A DNA stretch of 38,676 nt from a virus. Of this stretch, positions 1-38,676 are shown piece after piece (position 1 is the stretch's first letter; every line of letters begins with the position of its first letter). Both the position numbers and the translations under genes were made by a program. Location: IMG/VR virus record IMGVR_UViG_3300029573_000020, positions 1-38,676 of that record; one strand, 5' to 3'. The notes under the pieces are model-generated. The model was given only the letters and a program-made list of their open reading frames with translations. It was not told the origin of the DNA and ran no database searches.

Positions 1-74
1 GCCTCCAAGATGCTTTTCAGCTTTGTCGCACTCTGCTCTCCTGCCGTGCGGTGCTTCTTAGCCTCGTTGTTGAG
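1..74. repeat. Terminal duplication. 1..74 is identical to 38603..38676 (circular assembly overlap or terminal redundancy).
   Basis: Direct comparison of the two ends: gcctccaagatgcttttcagctttgtcgcactctgctctcctgccgtgcggtgcttcttagcctcgttgttgag is present at both termini. Confidence 0.9.
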
Positions 75-161
75 AGTGTTAATTTCGCCCTTGATAGCAG
101 CGATGAGGTCAGCACCGTTCTCAACTTTTTCCAGTGCTTCGTAAACCTGTTTCATTTCCAT
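1..161 (-). CDS. Phage scaffolding protein, N-terminal part. The gene wraps across the window junction and continues at 38602..38122.
   Basis: ATG at 161..159 (MEMKQVYEALEKVENGADLIAAIKGEINTLNNEAKKHRTAGEQSATKLKSILEA...) preceded by GGAGGT at 7-nt spacing. The reading frame continues exactly into the minus-strand ORF 38122..38610 once the 74-bp duplicated ends are collapsed. Confidence 0.7.
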   Translation of the reverse strand, partial: MEMKQVYEALEKVENGADLIAAIKGEINTLNNEAKKHRTAGEQSATKLKSILE

Positions 162-214
162 TTCTGATACCTCCATATCATGGGCCTCCGCCCTATATTG
201 TGCCCTCTCCTGGG

Positions 215-253
215 CAATAAAAAAGCGCATCTTGTGAAATTCACAAAATACGC
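215..253 (-). terminator. Rho-independent terminator on the minus strand, downstream of the toxin/immunity cassette.
   Basis: On the minus-strand RNA the segment GCGUAUUUUGUGAA/UUCACAAGAUGCGC forms a 14-bp stem (two G·U pairs, which are mismatches on the plus strand) followed by UUUUUUAUUG. Confidence 0.6.
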
Positions 254-313
254 TAATTATTAACTTGTTTGTTATATAAAAAAGCAACAGTATAGCTATG
301 AATTTAATTATTA

Positions 314-559
314 TTAATACCAAGCTTCCCATGATTCTTCTGGGAATTGACCATTTCTAACTAACTTATTAATATGAGAACACGCATGAAATTTATAAGC
401 ATCCCATATGCCAGGAATGTCTTTCAAAATGTCAAAATCATAGTTTTTAAGACCGACTTGAATAACACCATATTCTCCATCTTTTCCTTCTGGGTAGAAC
501 CTGTATTGTACGTATTCTTTTGTAAGTTTATGTAGAATAATTTTTACCATTAGAATCAT
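314..559 (-). CDS. Hypothetical 81-aa protein. Candidate immunity protein for the MuF C-terminal toxin-like domain.
   Basis: ORF immediately downstream of, and overlapping, the MuF-CTD gene. It lies in the same AT-rich (~33% GC) island and is followed by its own terminator. No family recognised. Confidence 0.45.
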   Translation of the reverse strand: MILMVKIILHKLTKEYVQYRFYPEGKDGEYGVIQVGLKNYDFDILKDIPGIWDAYKFHACSHINKLVRNGQFPEESWEAWY

Positions 560-2129
560 ACCTCTTATCTATAGCAGCCTTATAGTTATATTTCTTTTCC
601 GCTAGTATATGTGCTTCACTATAATTATAACCCATTTTTTTCATTATAGCTAGCTCTAAATGTTCATGATTAAGTAAAATAATATCGCAATCGCGTATAT
701 CTTTCCCGTTCAATAAACGAGTAAAGCTATCTGCCATATCTGGATCAGGAAGGAATGTACTAGTACCCGACTGTAGTTCGTGTTTAGTAATAAAAACATG
801 CTCAAAAATTCTATTTAATCTACTTATCGAATACCCTGTATTCTTATGTATTTTACTAGCAAAATCATTTTTGCCACAATCAATAATTCTGGCATAGGTC
901 TGCTTGGCCTCTTCTTCTAATTTAAAATATTCTTGAACACTGATTAACGCACCCATTTCAAATGTGTGCAGCCTGCCTTTTACTTCCCGCATTCCAGCAT
1001 ACCCACGCATATACTTGCGCCAATCCTTGCCATCTTCCCACGCCTTCAAGCCTTTACGCCCCAACACCTGCGCCCTGCGTGGCTCCGGCAAGCTATTCAG
1101 CCATTTGTCGCCTGCTTCCCGCACCTGGTCGCGCTGCTGCTGCATATCAACTTCGCCTTCAATGACTTCCACGTACCGGCATAAGCAATGCGGATGTACC
1201 GGCAAAGATGGCAGCTTATCATTGGGATATATTCCTGCACCTAAGCCATACATATCAGCTTTGGCGTACATGTCGCAGATATCAAAAACAGGGTGACGGC
1301 TGCTTAACTTGAATTTCACAGCCACAATATCAGCGTCATCTTTTATCTTTGCTATGAAGCCATCAGCCCATGCCCTCGCCATCTCGGTTCGGGTGATACG
1401 TTCGGCAACATAGCGGGATTTTTCGTTGACAGCAACTTCCACGGCCTTTTCAATAGCCTTTTCATTGCCTTTTTGCACTGCTTCCAGCAATTTATTATAG
1501 GCTGCCTGCAGTGCCTTGTTAGGTGCGCCATTTTTAGCCAGACGATTGATGTTGTCAATGGCCTGCCTTTGCTCAGCCAATGCCTGCAGGTCGTTGCCTG
1601 TAGCTTCCCTTACCTTCTGCAGATACTTTGGCAGGTTCTGCCTGCTGATAATATCCTTGCCACCGTTATATACGTTCTGGCCATCATCGCCATATCCGTC
1701 AAACAACGCCCTTGCAGCCTCAGTCCAGGTCTTGTTCCGGCGCATCTGCTCCTGCAGGGTGCTTACAATGGCATCACGCATTTTCACGCCTACGCCATGC
1801 AGCTTTTCGGATAGCGTCATGCCGCTTTCATCCCATTTACTGGCCAGCTCTTCGCCCATGCTTTCTACTTGCGCTTTAGTCAGCATAGTCGGAACGATAC
1901 CATAAGCATAAGCTGCAGCCTCTACAAGCGCAGGCTTCAGTTCCGGTAGCGTAAACAGCTTACCATAGTGGCGCTGCACATTATCCAGTGCCTCTTCAAA
2001 CTTCATGCCACTAGCAATCAGCCTTTGTAAGTAAGCTACTGCTTTTTTAGCATCCTTGCGCCAGCTTTTATTCAGTTTGTTAATCAGCTGCGCCAGTCTG
2101 TCCGTCGTCGCCATCATCGCCACCGCCAT
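528..2129 (-). CDS. Head morphogenesis protein (SPP1 gp7 / Phage_Mu_F family) with a ~140-aa C-terminal extension encoded in AT-rich DNA (528..~960). The extension is a putative polymorphic-toxin domain.
   Basis: The MuF-like core (…RITRTEMARAWADGF…HPHCLCRYVEVIEG) sits directly after the portal gene, as in SPP1. There is an abrupt GC drop at ~960 for the C-terminal domain. The start is taken at ATG 2129 (MAVAMMATTD). Confidence 0.75.
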   Translation of the reverse strand: MAVAMMATTDRLAQLINKLNKSWRKDAKKAVAYLQRLIASGMKFEEALDNVQRHYGKLFTLPELKPALVEAAAYAYGIVPTMLTKAQVESMGEELASKWDESGMTLSEKLHGVGVKMRDAIVSTLQEQMRRNKTWTEAARALFDGYGDDGQNVYNGGKDIISRQNLPKYLQKVREATGNDLQALAEQRQAIDNINRLAKNGAPNKALQAAYNKLLEAVQKGNEKAIEKAVEVAVNEKSRYVAERITRTEMARAWADGFIAKIKDDADIVAVKFKLSSRHPVFDICDMYAKADMYGLGAGIYPNDKLPSLPVHPHCLCRYVEVIEGEVDMQQQRDQVREAGDKWLNSLPEPRRAQVLGRKGLKAWEDGKDWRKYMRGYAGMREVKGRLHTFEMGALISVQEYFKLEEEAKQTYARIIDCGKNDFASKIHKNTGYSISRLNRIFEHVFITKHELQSGTSTFLPDPDMADSFTRLLNGKDIRDCDIILLNHEHLELAIMKKMGYNYSEAHILAEKKYNYKAAIDKRYDSNGKNYST

Positions 2130-3456
2130 TATCACCAAAAGCATGGCTATAATCCAGCTTTTCCTGCTCCAAGTGCTCTTCGTAGGTCTTCACCAGCGCG
2201 TCAAAGTCATCAGCCTTAAGCTCCGGCAGATAGCTGGTAAGAACTCTCTTGAACACTTCCATGTTAAATTCATCGCCAAAGTTCAAGCCTTTAGCAATTT
2301 CAGCATTAGCAAGCTCCTGCTCAACCTCACTGATTTTGAAGTCATTCGGGTAGTTCACACTGTATTCCAGCGGCACACCGGTCCAGATACTGAACAGCCT
2401 TGCCAGATTCTCTTCCGCTGCTTCCACGAGGTCTGCAAAATCGGATAAGATCTGATTGGTTGCCTCATAATCCCACGCTTTCGCCTGCCCGCTCTGCTGC
2501 TTGCTGGAGCCTGTTACGTTGACCACAACGGCCATGCGGTAAATCTCCTGCTGCAGTGTAGCAATCTGCGCTGCCAGCACCGTTGCAGGACCATCAGGCG
2601 GAGCGATGAACGCAGGTGCGTGGCTGCTCTCCGGCGGATATCCCAACGCATTATTGGTGCCGATGTTGATGCTGTCCGGGTCACTCGAAGGGTAACACAG
2701 AACGCTGAAGGTCTGATTGACCAGGATATCAGCCAACCAGCTGCACATATTGTAGATAGCAAGATTTGTTTTTGCTATGCTAAGGAATTCACTAGGTGGG
2801 AAAGGATTGTGACTATTCCTCACTTTGCTAACTAGAGGAACAACCGGTACGCGCCCAAGATTCCAGGTCCCGCTATGCTTGCCTTTGCTGTCGATAAGCT
2901 CCCAGCCTTCTGCCGTCAGTGTTCGTGTCGCCATCGTCTGTTCCTGGTATGCATCAGGCTCTACGAAAACAAACTTTGTGATACGTCCCAGCTTATCCTG
3001 ACAGATTTCCTTTACGGCATTAAGATTCACTACAAAAGCATAAGGCAGGTTATTGCGGTCCGCTTCCAGGTCTGCCACGCGCATATCCTCAGCATCGCCC
3101 TGAGCCTTATCCATAACGATATAAGCGACACCCTGCAGCTTCGCACTGCAGGCAGCCTGCTTCATAAGGTTCTGGATGCTGGTGCCCAAGAAGTCAACGT
3201 CCTTACTGAAGGTTTCCCACAGCTCCGAGCCTGCGCCGCTCCAGTCACGCACAGCCAGTGTTTTGAAGATTGGCGCTACATGAGCATTAACGCAGGGCGC
3301 AAGATAATTAAGGTAGTACGCCAGCTCGCGCCTCATGCCGTACTTTCCTGCATCCTCACGCGGGTGCTGGGTTAAATAGCTGCCGTCAAGAAAGCCTCCG
3401 CAGCCTTCATAGCCATCTTCCAGCATTTTGTATAATCCATGTTTATCATTACGCAT
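2080..3456 (-). CDS. Portal protein
   Basis: 459 aa. Located between TerL and MuF. ATG at 3456 with GAGGTG RBS. Size and position are typical of an SPP1-like portal. Confidence 0.8.
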   Translation of the reverse strand: MRNDKHGLYKMLEDGYEGCGGFLDGSYLTQHPREDAGKYGMRRELAYYLNYLAPCVNAHVAPIFKTLAVRDWSGAGSELWETFSKDVDFLGTSIQNLMKQAACSAKLQGVAYIVMDKAQGDAEDMRVADLEADRNNLPYAFVVNLNAVKEICQDKLGRITKFVFVEPDAYQEQTMATRTLTAEGWELIDSKGKHSGTWNLGRVPVVPLVSKVRNSHNPFPPSEFLSIAKTNLAIYNMCSWLADILVNQTFSVLCYPSSDPDSINIGTNNALGYPPESSHAPAFIAPPDGPATVLAAQIATLQQEIYRMAVVVNVTGSSKQQSGQAKAWDYEATNQILSDFADLVEAAEENLARLFSIWTGVPLEYSVNYPNDFKISEVEQELANAEIAKGLNFGDEFNMEVFKRVLTSYLPELKADDFDALVKTYEEHLEQEKLDYSHAFGDNGGGDDGDDGQTGAAD

Positions 3457-3469
3457 TTTTTCACCTCTC

Positions 3470-4852
3470 TTAATAGTTGACGCGCATCGGTTTAGGCCTT
3501 GCCACCTCCACGATGTCCTCACATACGCCTGTCAAAGCATCCGGAGCATCATCGTGTGTGTTCTTGCCTTCCTTCTGGTACTTGCTCAGTGCTGCATAAA
3601 ACTCCGGCCAGCGGTTCTTCCAATCGCTTGGGAAATAAATATGCTCCATGCACCACGTAGCATTAGACAAGATTCTTGCAGCCTTGTTCTTATGCTGCGT
3701 AAAGGTTTCAATGGTTGTATGGTTGCTATGCAGCAGCTTCTTCACGTTCCTGGCAAATCCACGCCCGCCATTGTTGCTTTCAAAGCGTGCCACATTCGTG
3801 CTGTTGCGTTCCAGTGCCATTGCCGTTGCCGGTTCAGTATCCTCCATGGGTGCCTTTGTGTATAAAACGTCAAGCACATACGCTTCATCCGCGAACGTGC
3901 GCCCATAGATAATGCAGCAAAGGTAATCGGCACCGGTATCAGCAGTATCGGTATAAGCACGAATCTGCTTGAAGGCAGGCAGCGCGCCGTCATAGGTCTT
4001 GAAGCTGCTGTACAGCCTGCCTTTGATATCAATCGGCTCCTGCTGGTAGTTGGCGCTCCATATGTCAAGCCCCATAAGCTGCTTCTTCTCCATGCAGCTT
4101 TCAGCATCCAGCACGCCATCACACAGCATGCTGCCGTCATCCTGCACTGCCTTCATGTTGATATGCACGATTTTTTCTGCCGGATAATATTCCAGCACCT
4201 TGCCTGCCAAATCATCACTAGCCCAACGCGTCATAATGACGATGATTTTATAATTGCCCTCGCCACGTGACAGCATGGTATTGGTGAACCAGTCCCAGTG
4301 CTTTTCTTTGACATTTTCGTTATAGGCTTCTTCCGCATTCTTGATTAAATCGTCTATGATCATCAGCCTGCAGCCAAAGCCTGTCGCTGTACCGGTTGGC
4401 GATGTAGCAAGGTAACTTGTCTGCTGTCCTTCGAGGCTCCACAGGTTCATAGCGCCGTCGCCACGCTTAATTTTGGTAGCGGGGAATACATCACTATAGA
4501 CCGGCTTATAAACATCCGCCTTGGCCTCACTGATGCTGTCACGCACGTTCTTGCTGAAGCGCGTCGACAGAGTTTCATTATAAGAGCCAATCATAACCTG
4601 CAAGGTGTTATCCCTGCCCAGCGCCCATTCCACGAAGTTGCTGGCCGTATAACTCTTGCCATGACGCGGAGGCATGTTCAGTACAAGTATCTTCTTATCT
4701 GAGGTCAAGAACCATTGCAAGGTATCGCACAGCTCCTGCAGATACTTGCGGTCACTCCGGTAGAAGTCGGGGTTCTTCAGCTGGGCGTAAAAAAAGAACC
4801 TGCGTCTTGCAAGTTCTATCTTTGCTCCCAATGTTATAAGCTGCTTATCCAT
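3470..4852 (-). CDS. terL: Terminase large subunit
   Basis: 460 aa. Walker A-like motif LNMPPRHGKS. A C-terminal nuclease-like region is present. The gene follows the TerS candidate with an 8-nt overlap. Confidence 0.9.
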   Translation of the reverse strand: MDKQLITLGAKIELARRRFFFYAQLKNPDFYRSDRKYLQELCDTLQWFLTSDKKILVLNMPPRHGKSYTASNFVEWALGRDNTLQVMIGSYNETLSTRFSKNVRDSISEAKADVYKPVYSDVFPATKIKRGDGAMNLWSLEGQQTSYLATSPTGTATGFGCRLMIIDDLIKNAEEAYNENVKEKHWDWFTNTMLSRGEGNYKIIVIMTRWASDDLAGKVLEYYPAEKIVHINMKAVQDDGSMLCDGVLDAESCMEKKQLMGLDIWSANYQQEPIDIKGRLYSSFKTYDGALPAFKQIRAYTDTADTGADYLCCIIYGRTFADEAYVLDVLYTKAPMEDTEPATAMALERNSTNVARFESNNGGRGFARNVKKLLHSNHTTIETFTQHKNKAARILSNATWCMEHIYFPSDWKNRWPEFYAALSKYQKEGKNTHDDAPDALTGVCEDIVEVARPKPMRVNY

Positions 4853-5201
4853 CCATACCAGCCAGCTTTTTCAGTTCTGCATCCGTCAGCCCTGCGAACG
4901 GATTAGAAAGCTCACCGGAGATTTCCACATTTTCTTTAGGCTTCAGGCCTACAGTATCACGATAAATTTCAAACGCCCTGATGTTGCCACGCTTGGCCTT
5001 CAGCTTCAGTGCATCCAGCATCTCCTTACGCTCATCGTCGGTCGTGAAGTCAGCGTCCAGCTCGCGGAACGACTTCAAGCGGCGGCGTGCTTCACCGGAT
5101 GCCTGCCCGCCTTTTTTGCCATTTCTCGCCGCTTCCTCGCCGCTTCGAAACCTTGTGGCTTTTCCATTCTTCAAATTATCCAGTTGTTTCTTTGTAGGCA
5201 T
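4845..5201 (-). CDS. terS: Terminase small subunit (putative)
   Basis: ~118-aa basic protein immediately upstream of and overlapping terL. ATG at 5201. Confidence 0.55.
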   Translation of the reverse strand: MPTKKQLDNLKNGKATRFRSGEEAARNGKKGGQASGEARRRLKSFRELDADFTTDDERKEMLDALKLKAKRGNIRAFEIYRDTVGLKPKENVEISGELSNPFAGLTDAELKKLAGMDG

Positions 5202-14930: not shown

Positions 14931-15694
14931 CACGCCCCGCAAAACTTGTTGATAAAGTACTGCTGGCCTTTGCCGGTAACCTTAGTGGTTTTGCTGACGC
15001 TGACGTGGCCGTCACTGTGGGAAATAGCCGTTTCTTTAATCTTGAACAAGCCCATTTCCATAGCTCTCTGCGTGGGGCTGTTGTAATCTGCTCCGGCACG
15101 CTTAATCAGGTATCCTTGCTCACGCATCCAGTTAAACAAGCGCTTCTGACCAATCGGATGGCCGTTCTGCTTCAGAATCTTCGCAAGGTCACCGATCAGA
15201 ATCGTGCTGTCAGACGCGCTCACCGCATCTGCAAAGAGTACCTTCGGCTTCGCCGCCTGCAAGCTGGCTTCCGCCTGTTGGCGAGCTGCTCTTTCCTCTT
15301 TTAAAGTTGTCGCCAGCTTTATAATCGTGTCCGGGTCAGTTAGTGCCTGCTCAATTTTATCGGCCGTCAGATATCCACCGTGTTTTCTGATTGCCGGAAG
15401 CACCTCGCTGGTCACCCATTCTTGAAAAGCTTCTGCCTTATCGGTTTTCGCTCTCATTACCAAACTGTAAAGTCCGGCTTCATCAATAATTGTAGTTTCT
15501 TGTTTACCTCCAGGGGTGTCCAAAACAGACATACCTTTATGGTTATCTTTTACGTGTTCTCTGACAGCCTTAGCTGTTTGACTGTAACCTAATGCTTGGG
15601 CTACATCCTTACCAACAAACCACGGCTCACCATTTTGCTGAATGGTACGAATCTGACCAAAGTCAGGACTGTTGAAAATTTTAATGTTATTCAC
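14930..15694 (-). CDS. Phage antirepressor (Bro-N + KilA-C/ANT domains)
   Basis: N-terminal IRTIQQNGEPWFVGKDVAQALGY (Bro-N). C-terminal LIGDLAKILKQNGHPIGQKRLFNWMREQGYL (KilA-C). Confidence 0.8.
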   Translation of the reverse strand: MNNIKIFNSPDFGQIRTIQQNGEPWFVGKDVAQALGYSQTAKAVREHVKDNHKGMSVLDTPGGKQETTIIDEAGLYSLVMRAKTDKAEAFQEWVTSEVLPAIRKHGGYLTADKIEQALTDPDTIIKLATTLKEERAARQQAEASLQAAKPKVLFADAVSASDSTILIGDLAKILKQNGHPIGQKRLFNWMREQGYLIKRAGADYNSPTQRAMEMGLFKIKETAISHSDGHVSVSKTTKVTGKGQQYFINKFCGA

Positions 15695-15728
15695 TTGGCA
15701 CCTCTTTTCTTAAACGCCGTCTGTTTTT

Positions 15729-15747
15729 TGTAGACTATTTGTCTACA
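15729..15747. promoter_or_regulatory. Operator copy O2 (TGTAGACT-ATT-TGTCTACA), between the cro-like gene and the antirepressor gene
   Basis: Near-identical to O1. It overlaps the cro-like stop codon and lies 35 bp upstream of the antirepressor start. Confidence 0.55.
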
Positions 15748-15956
15748 TCACAGGCAAAAAAAATTGCTTCTTTTTCACTTAATTTAGAAATTCTAAGCAA
15801 ATCGCACATTTTAGAGATTTCACCAGCGTTGAACGGGACCTCATTGTTAATTTTTCTTTTTAATGTTTGATATGTAACTTTAAGTTCCGCTGCAATTCTG
15901 GCTTTTTTCAATCCGCTATCTGCAATAGCTTTTTCTAATTTGACTGTATCTGTCAC
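15735..15956 (-). CDS. Cro-like XRE-family HTH regulator
   Basis: LKKARIAAELKVTYQTLKRKINNEVPFNAGEISKMCDLL helix-turn-helix. Divergent from the repressor gene. GTG start with GGGAGG RBS. Confidence 0.65.
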   Translation of the reverse strand: MTDTVKLEKAIADSGLKKARIAAELKVTYQTLKRKINNEVPFNAGEISKMCDLLRISKLSEKEAIFFACDVDK

Positions 15957-15972
15957 GTTATCGCCTCCCTTT

Positions 15973-15991
15973 TGTAGACATTTTGTCTACA
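15973..15991. promoter_or_regulatory. Operator O1, the 8-3-8 palindrome TGTAGACA-TTT-TGTCTACA
   Basis: Perfect inverted repeat. It lies between the -10 of the leftward promoter and the cro-like RBS. Confidence 0.65.
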
Positions 15992-15996
15992 TCACT

Positions 15997-16025
15997 ATTA
16001 TATTTCTTTGTTTCCTGTTTGTCAA
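15997..16025 (-). promoter_or_regulatory. Leftward early promoter (PR-like). -35 TTGACA, 17-bp spacer, -10 TATAAT.
   Basis: On the minus strand TTGACA is 16025..16020 and TATAAT is 16002..15997. Both are consensus sigma-70 hexamers with a 17-bp spacer. Confidence 0.7.
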
Positions 16026-16044
16026 CAAAATTTTAGTGATTTTG

Positions 16045-16073
16045 TTGCATTTTTTTCTACACGATGTTACAAT
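16045..16073 (+). promoter_or_regulatory. Rightward repressor promoter (PRM-like). -35 TTGCAT, 17 bp, -10 TACAAT.
   Basis: TTGCAT 16045..16050 and TACAAT 16068..16073. A GTCTACA-like half-site (ttctacac) lies in the spacer. Upstream of RBS AAGGAGAG. Confidence 0.5.
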
Positions 16074-16102
16074 AAATTTAAACAAAAAGGAGAGTGAACA
16101 CA

Positions 16103-16552
16103 ATGACCACTATAGGAGACCGTATAAAAGCACGTAGATTAGAATTAGATATGTCGCAAGATGAATTAGCAAGATTAGTTGGATATAAATCGCGTTCATC
16201 TATCAATAAAATTGAAAGTGACGGCAGATTGCTACCCCAAAGAAAAATTATGGAAATTGCAAATGCGCTTAATACAACGCCAGCATATATTATGGGATGG
16301 GAAGAATCTAACGAAACCGAAGCTCCCTCCGTCCCCCTCACCCCCCGCGATGAACGCCAAATCGCCGCAGACCTCGAAAAAATGCTTGCCGACCTCGACA
16401 GCAAAAACTCTATGGCTGCCATGGGCGGTACCGTTGAAGATGATGAAGACAGAGAACTCCTGAAAGCAAGCCTGCAGGCTACCATGCGACTGGCAAAGAA
16501 AATCGCCAAAGAAAAATACACTCCTAAAAAATATCGCCACGAAGAGGAATAA
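16103..16552 (+). CDS. Phage repressor, XRE-family HTH (ImmR-like). No S24 peptidase domain.
   Basis: MTTIGDRIKARRLELDMSQDELARLVGYKSRSSINKIE HTH_XRE. Acidic C-terminal half. Followed directly by an ImmA-like gene. Confidence 0.8.
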   Translation: MTTIGDRIKARRLELDMSQDELARLVGYKSRSSINKIESDGRLLPQRKIMEIANALNTTPAYIMGWEESNETEAPSVPLTPRDERQIAADLEKMLADLDSKNSMAAMGGTVEDDEDRELLKASLQATMRLAKKIAKEKYTPKKYRHEEE

Positions 16553-19052: not shown

Positions 19053-20327
19053 ATGTCAACATTAAACGTAACAAAACGCGGCGATAAATGGCAGTACCGT
19101 TTCGAAACTGCTTCCGTCGACGGCAAGCGTAAGCGTGTTTCCAAATCCGGCTTTAAAACGAAAAAGGAAGCCGTGGAAGCCGGAACCAGGGCGCTGGCAG
19201 AATACAACGAAAGCGGTCAGACTTTCAATCTTTCCAGCATTTCCGTTGCGGATTATCTGGACAGTTGGATTGATACTTACTGCAAAATGAACCTAAAATA
19301 TAATACCCAGCTTGGCTATCTTTATACTATCGAAAATCATCTGAAGCCCAGCCTTGGTATGTATAGGCTGAAATCTCTTACACCCTCCGCCATTCAGGAA
19401 TTCGTAAATGCTCTGAAGCTGCGTGGTCTCAGCAGGGCAAGCATCGTCGGTATATTCTCCACGCTCTCTGCAGCGCTGGATTATGCTATTGAGCCGTTGA
19501 AGTACATCCAGTATAATCCATGCAATAACGTAAGAATCCCCAAGGATACGGCAGCCAAGAAGGAAACCCGGTACATCATAACACCGGAGCAGTTTAAGCA
19601 GATTTTAGAGCGCTTTCCGGAAGGCTCTAATTTTTATATTCCGCTTATGATCGGCTACTACACCGGCGTAAGAATTTCCGAATGCTTCGGCCTTACTTGG
19701 AATGATGTCGATTTTGATAATAAGACCATAAGTATCAGCAAGGCTTTGCTTAAGCGCAACTGTGGCGCAGATGTAAGGGAAATCCTGAAGAAGAAGGGCA
19801 AGAAGGAAGAGAAAAGCGCCTGGTATTTCAACAGCACAAAAACTTTCAAGTCCAACCGCATCATCAACATCGGTGATACACTCTGTGCTGCATTGAAAAA
19901 AGCTTATGACCGGCAAATGGCCAACAAAGCCTTCTATGACGAATACTACACAAAAATCTACAAAAAGCCGGAGCAGGACGAAAAAGGCGATACCATTTAC
20001 CGGCTCATAGAAATTGAAGCCGGAGTGCCCTGCCCTCTTGAGTCCGTGGATATGATAAACGTAAGGGAGAACGGCCAGCTGCTGAGTATGGACAGCATGA
20101 AGTATTGCAGCCGTGCAATCCACTATGAGCTGAAGATAAATTTCAACTACCATTCACTGCGGCATACACACGCTACAACGCTTATCGAGAACGGTGCCAA
20201 TATAAAGGACGTGCAGGAGCGTTTAGGACACTGCAACATAGAAACAACACTTAATACATATACCCACAATACCGACTACCTGAGAAATCAATCAGTAGAA
20301 ATCTTTGAAAAGGCGGTTCAAAAATAA
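19053..20327 (+). CDS. int: Tyrosine site-specific integrase
   Basis: C-terminal catalytic pattern …NYHSLRHTHATTLIENGANIKDVQERLGHCNIETTLNTYTH (R…HxxR…Y). AAAGGAG RBS. Confidence 0.95.
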   Translation: MSTLNVTKRGDKWQYRFETASVDGKRKRVSKSGFKTKKEAVEAGTRALAEYNESGQTFNLSSISVADYLDSWIDTYCKMNLKYNTQLGYLYTIENHLKPSLGMYRLKSLTPSAIQEFVNALKLRGLSRASIVGIFSTLSAALDYAIEPLKYIQYNPCNNVRIPKDTAAKKETRYIITPEQFKQILERFPEGSNFYIPLMIGYYTGVRISECFGLTWNDVDFDNKTISISKALLKRNCGADVREILKKKGKKEEKSAWYFNSTKTFKSNRIINIGDTLCAALKKAYDRQMANKAFYDEYYTKIYKKPEQDEKGDTIYRLIEIEAGVPCPLESVDMINVRENGQLLSMDSMKYCSRAIHYELKINFNYHSLRHTHATTLIENGANIKDVQERLGHCNIETTLNTYTHNTDYLRNQSVEIFEKAVQK

Positions 20328-38121: not shown

Positions 38122-38676
38122 TTAAGAATTAAAGCCACTGAGGAACGGATCATCAGAACCGCTGCCACCGCCATTGCTGCCGCCACCGCCTGCACCGTTG
38201 GCCTTAACTGCCCAGCTGTTCTCCTTCAGCCAGCCGTTAACGCCGTCTTCCAGGCTGATTTCTTTGCCGTCGCTGCCGGTATAGGCAAGGCTTTCATCGT
38301 CTTTGACAACGATACTGCCTTCCAGCAGCTTAGCCATGTTCTGCGGACTCGCAGCATTGCCCTTGGTCAGCAGCTCTACAGCCTTAGCCATCTTCATGCC
38401 GTCAAGACGCTTAGTCTTTTCAGCTTTGGCGGTCTCAGTCATATCAGCCAGCTGCTTAGTGACCTTGCCAACCTGCGCGGTTAAGTCAGCAATCTGCTTT
38501 GCGACCTCATCAGGCTTTTTGCCGCCCTGGGCAAATTGGTCTAATGTAGTCTTAAGTCCTTTGGCTTTGTCTACCACATCGTCACCATCGACCAAACCAA
38601 CAGCCTCCAAGATGCTTTTCAGCTTTGTCGCACTCTGCTCTCCTGCCGTGCGGTGCTTCTTAGCCTCGTTGTTGAG
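38122..38676 (-). CDS. Phage scaffolding protein, C-terminal part (continues from 161..1 across the junction)
   Basis: Helical, charged protein …ADLTAQVGKVTKQLADMTETAKAEKTKRLDGMKMAKAVELL… with a Gly-rich tail. Sits between the MuF/immunity cassette and the capsid gene. Confidence 0.7.
   Translation of the reverse strand, partial: LNNEAKKHRTAGEQSATKLKSILEAVGLVDGDDVVDKAKGLKTTLDQFAQGGKKPDEVAKQIADLTAQVGKVTKQLADMTETAKAEKTKRLDGMKMAKAVELLTKGNAASPQNMAKLLEGSIVVKDDESLAYTGSDGKEISLEDGVNGWLKENSWAVKANGAGGGGSNGGGSGSDDPFLSGFNS

Follow-up and report, generated by a model that had tools for sequence, protein, structure and literature searches.

A probable polymorphic toxin–immunity cassette on the MuF-type head protein of a temperate Phascolarctobacterium phage

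Introduction

Phage head proteins of the MuF type, such as SPP1 gp7, bind the portal in a few copies, are packaged in the capsid and exit together with the DNA. The human gut is believed to be rich in toxins fused to MuF proteins, and about two thirds of the extensions that MuF proteins have at their C-terminus carry no known domain. To our knowledge, only two MuF-toxin activities have been characterised: those of Apk2, a (p)ppApp synthetase, and of Bxa, an ADP-ribosyltransferase. Polymorphic toxin systems as a whole, with 'MuF-based toxin delivery' among them, were reportedly treated by Zhang and colleagues in 2012. MuF toxins with adjacent immunity genes have been described (Jamet et al., 2017, PMC5576092), and both toxicity and its neutralisation by an adjacent small protein were demonstrated experimentally for Apk2/IapK and Bxa (PMC12226406, PMC11699363); MuF fusions have also been discussed as virion-delivered effectors (PMC5512222). 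Here, we analyse the viral record IMGVR_UViG_3300029573_000020 over its whole length of 38,676 nucleotides (nt), hereafter called the window. It encodes a MuF-type head protein of 538 amino acids (aa), which ends in a domain that we term X, followed by a small overlapping gene for a candidate immunity protein, here called the partner.

We assign a probability of roughly three in four to the reading that positions 227–968 of the window are one allele of a polymorphic toxin–immunity cassette, carried on the MuF C-terminus of a temperate Phascolarctobacterium phage. The initial annotation, made from the sequence alone, had proposed the architecture of a MuF-fused toxin with an immunity gene, and comparative evidence upholds this: the extension is swapped between siblings, known toxins occupy the same slot, and the partner is closely linked to X. 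The evidence from sequence comparison supports X and its partner as a new toxin/immunity family within the known class of MuF polymorphic toxins, and not as a new kind of system.

Results

Sibling phages differ in the cassette behind a constant MuF core

A scan of IMG/VR with residues 1–385 of the core returned 40 loci, 30 of them 87–97% identical to it, and the core is common to these 40 loci and to 12 genome loci. When the open reading frames (ORFs) of these siblings are read on from the core end, all share ...YMRGYAGM-RExxSRL and diverge completely beyond it. Starting from the same residue, aa 393, cores of 87–97% identity carry at least ten unrelated C-terminal extensions of about 110–215 aa, which vary together with the small ORF and the terminator stem. 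The window type recurs in L016 and L019, and a sister type of the same family, about 45% identical, in 12 loci. Recognised toxin domains are found among the other sibling extensions, namely Ntox50 (PF15542, E = 1.7e-28) and TNT (PF14021, E = 2.9e-25); three or four further types contain HExxH, with no more than weak matches to Tox-MPTase3/4, and the remainder comprise a JAB-like type, an HGxPKxHP type and others without assignment. Locus L039 has a 20-aa tail only and lacks the small ORF. The C-terminal domain is thus a swappable one, as had been suggested initially.

The limits of the exchanged segment were obtained by blastn against 13 sibling loci, which placed the left junction at window positions ~956–1019 (aa 392/393) and the right junction at 226, or at 301 in the case of the Ntox50 siblings, which share the terminator of the window. 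Owing to these junctions, the cassette can be delimited as 227–968, coinciding with a low-GC island, and the flank on the scaffold side is 97–99% conserved in all siblings. The comparison shows a constant core, beside which the extension, the small ORF and the terminator stem are swapped together from one near-identical phage to another. The abrupt drop in guanine-plus-cytosine (GC) content noticed at the outset is confirmed: the core (969–2144) has a GC content of 0.506 and the cassette 0.311, the lowest value for any 742-nt segment of a genome with a GC content of 0.470 (segment mean 0.471, standard deviation 0.038). At third codon positions, the values are 0.554 for the core, 0.238 for X and 0.232 for the small ORF. 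The extensions are AT-rich in every type, with a GC content of 0.32–0.39 compared with 0.50 in the core, in phages of ~50% GC.

The peptide that ends the core, RExxSRL (window 969–989, aa 386–392; same position in L006–L063), occurs in the variants GKQESRV, VNPTSRL, MKPKSRL and GSPLSRL. All cassette types retain it, including those on cores of only 45% identity, and it might act as an anchor for recombination or as a site of processing. The two junctions, at this peptide and at the terminator tail GCTTTTTTATTG, show how cassettes get exchanged. Decayed Ntox50 cassettes were also observed (L023 4156–4765, L058 3697–4008 and L060 3277–3691), in which a premature stop severs the toxin part from MuF; L023 keeps its 66-aa immunity ORF intact, which looks like toxin loss with retention of immunity. 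Many siblings have an extra predicted membrane protein of 60–85 aa (…LKTTLGIVQAGLILGKLFG…; phrog_1374, a family of unknown function) between the immunity and scaffold genes, with its own terminator upstream (L009 4894–5088; L010/L022/L030 4896–5117; L011 4928–5110; L037 4695–4907; L056 1409–1666; L005 5375–5587); it is absent from the window. A YjcQ-like ORF of ~105–122 aa is the second downstream gene after several cassette types (L029 4869–5186, L033 2939–3307 and L065 5514–5846).

The cassette closes with a conserved terminator

The minus-strand terminator that had been predicted before the scaffold gene was recovered as a hairpin with a folding free energy of −18.2 kcal/mol and a T-run after the stem. 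Every cassette type closes in this way, with a hairpin and a T-run ~61 nt before the scaffold ATG. The stem sequences differ by type; the 3' end of the terminator (GCTT/TTTTATTG) is conserved across types and coincides with the right-hand recombination junction of the cassette. Because it is present in every cassette type, a terminator at this position is a general conserved feature of the locus and not a peculiarity of this allele. The portal, MuF and partner genes would then form one transcription unit ending before the scaffold gene. A promoter scan within the cassette found six candidates where 4.5 were expected, which is not above chance and gives no support to the idea that the partner gene has a promoter of its own in lysogens.

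The small ORF belongs to a family linked to domain X

An overlapping ORF of 81 aa (314–559, minus strand) had been listed in the initial annotation; it exists, is conserved and is under purifying selection. Its first ATG, at 559, lies 32 nt inside the MuF gene, and a second ATG, at 550, gives 78 aa and an overlap of 23 nt. The start at 550 is favoured by the family length (78–79 aa), by the start of the hidden Markov model (HMM) alignment and by the spacing of a Shine–Dalgarno sequence, AAGAGG, 10 nt before it. The partner family comprises 78 clusters, nearly all of 77–82 aa and mostly of ~79 aa, and its predicted structure, with five strands and one helix, has a mean predicted local distance difference test (pLDDT) score of 94.1. 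Ratios of nonsynonymous to synonymous substitution (dN/dS) indicate purifying selection on both genes (0.10–0.23 overall; 0.11–0.23 for the partner).

The type of the small ORF switches with every extension type. The downstream ORFs of the other types have 50–96 aa, for example 66 aa for Ntox50, 54 aa for the HEMIH type, 80–83 aa for the HGxPK type and 87–96 aa for TNT; in the family of the window, the ORF is invariably a homologue of 77–82 aa. When all loci examined were searched with HMMs of the two families, a partner ORF was found within −13 to +39 nt of 24 of the 25 X domains, the exception being at a contig end, and none lay beside any other cassette type in the same loci. The pairing extends to phages of Streptococcus suis and S. 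mitis, a Staphylococcus pseudintermedius phage, the C. difficile phage CDMH1 and a phage encoding MuF–zincin–X, and likewise to a Gemella chromosome, Oscillospiraceae metagenome-assembled genomes and metagenomic contigs. The partner diverges faster than X (mean identity 31% versus 44%); in the pair L006/L010, X is 83% identical and the partner 52%. Distances within the two families correlate (Mantel r = 0.72, p = 2e-4). Isoelectric points have a median of 7.9 in X and of 5.1 in the partner, although charge is not diagnostic.

Pfam assigned no family to 55 members of the partner family, and neither X nor the partner matched a family in NCBIfam, PADLOC or the PDB. The suggestion that the pair may be new therefore holds as far as these databases are concerned; nevertheless, it is not rare, as the number of X clusters given below makes clear.

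Domain X is a large, sharply bounded family

An exhaustive profile search returned 2,421 cluster representatives of X, with clusters defined at 50% identity, and 676 of these had E ≤ 1e-30. A profile search was required, as a word-indexed search with the single X sequence found only two relatives. X forms the C-terminal end of the protein in 257 of 259 cases. Among 99 longer carriers, the N-termini were assigned to Phage_Mu_F (PF04233; 45), Phage_min_cap2 (PF06152; 27), VG15 (eight) and portal (one). Of the MuF toxin domains catalogued by Jamet et al. (2017, PMC5576092), 75% also occur on other delivery domains such as LXG, Rhs and CdiA, and X is unlike these. The sole non-MuF carrier seen is a protein of actinobacterial type, P0199 (5,865 aa; L051 5001–22598), encoded on a 778-kb contig of 70% GC downstream of a giant ORF of 2,591 aa; it contains four internal copies of X, with E-values of 1e-19 to 1e-23 each. 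In some carriers, MuF and X are separated by an HExxH zincin or by a PBECR3-like domain. The order MuF, HExxH zincin (HEFAH…EFFAE, ATLF/Peptidase_Mx1-like) and X is recurrent (P0231, P0308, P0324 and P0285; L065 3001–5478), and in L065 a 60-aa ORF and then the YjcQ-family gene come after the X partner ORF.

The fold of X was predicted with AlphaFold2 to be all-alpha, with seven helices and one beta-hairpin (pLDDT 89.8). Twelve residues, A413, Y417, F451, R476, L477, D487, L491, H493, E494, E497, A511 and H512, are the same throughout, in Firmicute phages as in the actinobacterial copies. In the model, H493-E494-x-x-E497 lies on one long helix and H512 on the next. X is probably an enzyme, and more precisely a metal-dependent hydrolase, as the H-E-x-x-E arrangement, H512 and the invariant D487, R476 and Y417 of the model suggest. 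X corresponds to no recognised toxin domain: Pfam gave no family for any of 76 X members, and comparison with PDB sequences by phmmer and by profile search gave nothing significant. A likeness to helix-turn-helix proteins over the KIxxNTGxS region is too weak to use (phrog_379, E = 0.08; HTH_36, E = 3e-4 in one member), and the actinobacterial copies do not show it. The MuF protein of CDMH1, which carries an X homologue, was classed as 'Cter-Unk' by Jamet et al. (2017, PMC5576092).

The N-terminal domain is a divergent MuF core

The 538-aa ORF of the initial annotation was recovered; its proposed gene start at 2129 was not, being the second in-frame ATG of an ORF that spans 528–2144. Identification of the core as MuF stands through PHROGs and not through Pfam, where PF04233 remains below threshold. 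Residues 221–333 match PHROG head-morphogenesis and minor-head families (phrog_1657, head morphogenesis, E = 1.4e-26). Further matches are phrog_4728 (E = 2.2e-14), phrog_115 (minor head protein, E = 1.2e-10) and, for the core, the MuF part of the Bxa family phrog_16625 (E = 7.7e-5). It carries an H-P-H-C-L-C-R motif, and H-P-H-C-x-C-R aligns with the HPxCRC of PF04233 carriers; in the window, it ends in the conserved linker ...WRKYMRGYAGM-REVKGRL. The Pfam scan gave no PF06152 match on the window protein, and TIGR01641 (SPP1 gp7) reached E = 0.024 on the core, under its cut-off. Based on the PHROG matches, the HPHCxCR motif and the post-portal position, the more sensitive evidence assigns the N-terminal domain to the MuF superfamily, as far as sequence comparison can place it.

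Orphan arrays and stand-alone pairs

In Gemella sp. zg-570 (L048), a full-length MuF–ADPrib_exo_Tox gene and a 139-aa partner lead an array that is followed by the scaffold gene. The 5'-truncated genes of this array keep a stub of ~70 aa of the MuF core (...PRHPRCRCVLVAYIDVD...FDREE), fused to CdiA_C, to X (then an 81-aa partner), to an ADP-ribosyltransferase domain and to one further domain. Behind the last orphan cassette (L048 6590–7838) come two ORFs of 59 and 138 aa, the second with an HD-hydrolase-like motif (…HDVVEDS…), in a layout that recalls Apk2–IapK–Aph1. Two stub-bearing cassettes adjoin host genes on the Logan contig L005, and one of these orphan cassettes is 80.6% DNA-identical to window 947..202. 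In Oscillospiraceae (L046/L047 4001–4665), X (143 aa) and a 78-aa partner stand alone with no visible phage head module; their neighbours include a 1,034-aa protein with weak PADLOC TmtA matches as well as WYL, HIRAN and McrB-like AAA genes, giving the surroundings the look of a defence island.

Genome context of the locus

The window begins and ends with an exact 74-nt direct repeat (1–74 and 38603–38676) and is therefore taken to be a circular, complete phage assembly. The MuF gene lies directly 3' of the portal gene in the head and packaging module (Table 1), whose order is terminase, portal, MuF, small ORF, scaffold and major head protein, the last at the far end of the window. The scaffold gene is split across the ends of the circular assembly (161..1 and 38676..38122), and its C-terminal part matches the head scaffolding protein families phrog_206/194. 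A tyrosine integrase (19053–20327), an ImmA/IrrE peptidase, antirepressors, a tape measure protein and a tail protein are encoded, and the phage is thus considered to be temperate and siphovirus-like. Prophage copies were found in Phascolarctobacterium genome contigs, which identifies this genus of gut Negativicutes as the host. A megablast search with window 1–5000 against GenBank phages gave no match. Contigs with this type of prophage in L052, L056 and L060 are binned as 'Escherichia coli' or 'Bacteroides sp. CAG:545', which are probably binning errors and not host range. The second-lowest GC stretch of the window (~15521–16260, 0.345) lies near the antirepressor and lysogeny-control genes and may be another acquired moron.

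Table 1. Features of the cassette and of its surroundings in the window
Feature	Position	Strand	Basis or note
Head scaffolding gene, 5' end (MEMKQVYEALEKVENG...), conserved right flank	1..161	-	Sibling flank 97–99% conserved
Intrinsic terminator	214..254	-	14-bp stem 254..224, 3-nt loop, then TTTTTATTG
Exchangeable low-GC cassette: coding part of X, partner gene and terminator stem	227..968	.	blastn junctions, GC
Candidate immunity (partner) gene, 78 aa, or 81 aa from ATG 559	314..550	-	Partner family and position
538-aa MuF-type head protein gene	528-2144	-	ORF list
Domain X, aa 393-538, cassette-specific C-terminal toxin-like domain	528..968	-	Sibling divergence from ~968
Conserved MuF-type core, aa 1-392	969..2144	-	PHROG matches
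Portal gene	2080..3522	-	phrog_145, E 2.2e-48; overlaps the MuF gene from directly upstream
Terminase large subunit gene	3470-4852	-	PF03237

Discussion

If the cassette is a toxin–immunity allele, the course of events can be pictured as follows. MuF-X would dock on the portal, be packaged and leave the capsid with the DNA, so that X would reach the cytoplasm of whichever cell is infected next. The 78-aa protein, which is translationally coupled, would bind X and keep it inactive in lysogens and in the cell that produces the phage, conferring immunity, and cells without a matching partner would be inhibited. X itself would act enzymatically, its active site being the H/E cluster.

Several points weigh against this interpretation. 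The toxicity of X and its neutralisation by the partner are proposed from context, incorporation into the virion and ejection of MuF-X are assumed by analogy with SPP1 gp7, and the activity of X is guessed from about eight invariant residues, with no known toxin family or fold matched. In the 99 long carriers, the N-termini recognised were solely of the MuF superfamily or portal, and no LXG, Rhs or CdiA carrier was among them; confinement of X to MuF carriers fits a phage-specific effector as well as a general antibacterial toxin. No partner-family ORF was found within 5 kb of the four-X protein P0199, which means that this immunity family does not go with X in every case. The co-variation of X and partner is weak after close pairs are removed (r = 0.27, p = 0.03). 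In addition, PF04233 scored below threshold on the core (E = 0.24; 12.6 bits compared with a cut-off of 29.6), and an hhalign comparison of the core with PF04233-positive proteins, with E = 1.6e-4, yielded a probability of only 50%.

The main rival explanation, which we regard as unlikely, holds that X is a virion-injected host-takeover or anti-defence effector, a 'polyvalent protein' following the T4 Alt paradigm, which acts early in the new cell for the benefit of the phage. The partner would then be an assembly-time inhibitor or chaperone that silences X in the producing cell until packaging. The near-exclusive occurrence of X in head-packaged MuF-superfamily proteins, never in secretion-system carriers, is what such an effector would predict; the tripartite MuF–zincin–X proteins resemble polyvalent effectors, the strong terminator after the partner makes portal, MuF and partner one expression unit, and the case for MuF fusions as DNA-delivered effectors has been made by Iyer et al. 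(2017, PMC5512222). However, the slot is shared with the classic lethal toxins Ntox50, TNT, CdiA_C and ADP-ribosyltransferase, stand-alone pairs of X and partner exist outside phages, and orphan arrays, together with decayed toxins next to intact immunity genes (L023, L058 and L060), are hallmarks of toxin/immunity conflict. Mechanistically, the two explanations overlap, since both involve delivery by the capsid and a neutralising partner. X and its partner could also be seen as a module of the toxin–antitoxin type, serving addiction or abortive infection, that is simply carried along at a hot spot of recombination and stabilises the prophage or excludes other phages, in which case MuF delivery would be irrelevant. 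The stand-alone pairs in Oscillospiraceae sit among defence-type genes (helicase, WYL, HIRAN, McrB-like), the X and partner genes overlap like type II toxin–antitoxin pairs, and orphan pairs adjoin host genes. Nevertheless, we judge this quite improbable: X is fused to a MuF-superfamily C-terminus in the large majority of the family, the stand-alone copies often keep a stub of the MuF linker, suggesting descent from fusions, and PADLOC matched neither X nor the partner.

The identity of X leaves room for two further proposals. The initial annotation had pointed to a weak R...STS...E pattern of the ADP-ribosyltransferase kind, and a diverged HExxH zincin peptidase like those in neighbouring cassettes can also be imagined, because H493-E494-x-x-E497 has the same spacing as HExxH, H512 is located on the following helix and zincin-type cassettes are common at the locus. 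We consider either identity improbable. The ADP-ribosyltransferase assignment was rejected, as the predicted fold is all-alpha, the S-T-S stretch is variable in homologues so that the pattern is not conserved, and Pfam gave no ADP-ribosyltransferase match; the zincin assignment was rejected with an hhalign probability of 0.6% against an HExxH cassette from the same locus, and X does not present HExxH and a third ligand on a zincin fold. It might finally be argued that the last 146 aa simply have a structural or morphogenetic role within MuF, that their AT-richness is incidental and that the small ORF is spurious or unrelated. Homologues in CDMH1 and others are annotated as 'minor head protein' or 'head maturation protease', and the phrog_115 'minor head protein' match reaches into the first ~65 aa of X. 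This is barely credible and already contradicted, as siblings with 87–97% identical cores swap the region or lack it (L039), and the small ORF represents a conserved family with purifying selection and a confident predicted fold.

Returning to the toxin–immunity interpretation, the locus assigns one uncharacterised MuF extension to a family that is very large, has sharp boundaries and comes with a partner protein of its own, and it supplies candidate catalytic residues as well as a naturally occurring set of isogenic phages in which nothing but the cassette differs. It makes testable the function of X, the role of the partner as a specific immunity protein, and the idea that capsid-delivered toxins decide competition between Phascolarctobacterium strains in the gut. 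A more far-reaching possibility, which we offer tentatively and do not favour, is that X represents a novel enzymatic fold built around an HExxE...H centre and reaches cells specifically by way of the capsid, with the partner as a new immunity fold. If this is true, X would be among the most abundant MuF cargoes in Firmicute phages (>2,400 clusters), and its activity would be new among bacterial toxins and phage effectors, in view of the restriction to MuF, the tandem use behind zincins and the four-fold repeat in the giant actinobacterial protein.

Compared with the systems described so far, the locus most resembles the MuF toxins of Jamet et al. (2017, PMC5576092), with which it shares a MuF gene behind the portal gene, a variable C-terminus, a small downstream ORF, a temperate Firmicute phage, an origin in the human gut and sibling alleles that carry recognised toxin domains. 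It differs in that X is absent from the catalogued toxin domains and is not shared with other polymorphic-toxin families, and in that the window core falls below the PF04233/PF06152 thresholds. As in Apk2/IapK/Aph1 and Bxa, a MuF N-terminus would be combined with a toxic C-terminus and an adjacent non-enzymatic, binding immunity protein, which in the window are proposed by analogy. However, Apk2 is a (p)ppApp synthetase of the RelA/SpoT type and Bxa an ADP-ribosyltransferase, whereas X is an unrelated domain predicted to be all-alpha; moreover, X has a single partner of ~78 aa and, unlike the Apk2 system, no second immunity enzyme that degrades the product. Ct_MAD/MuF-C, the tail of Mu gpF, is likewise an uncharacterised domain at a MuF C-terminus, but it spans 251 positions, is proteobacterial and has no detectable relationship to X; identity with it was rejected (hhalign probability 0.25% against Mu gp30). 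With the polyvalent effectors (Iyer et al., 2017, PMC5512222), the locus has in common the use of MuF as a capsid-targeting module, and MuF–zincin–X and PBECR3–X proteins exist; nevertheless, the window protein has a single effector with a dedicated partner, and X is not among the LPD/PBECR domains of Pfam. Finally, the cassettes of L048 and L005 are similar to the orphan arrays of Rhs, CdiA and MafB, because 5'-truncated cassettes keep a conserved stub for recombination and their own immunity genes. The difference is that here it is a phage head protein whose end forms the stub, and the array lies inside a head-morphogenesis operon, between the MuF and scaffold genes.

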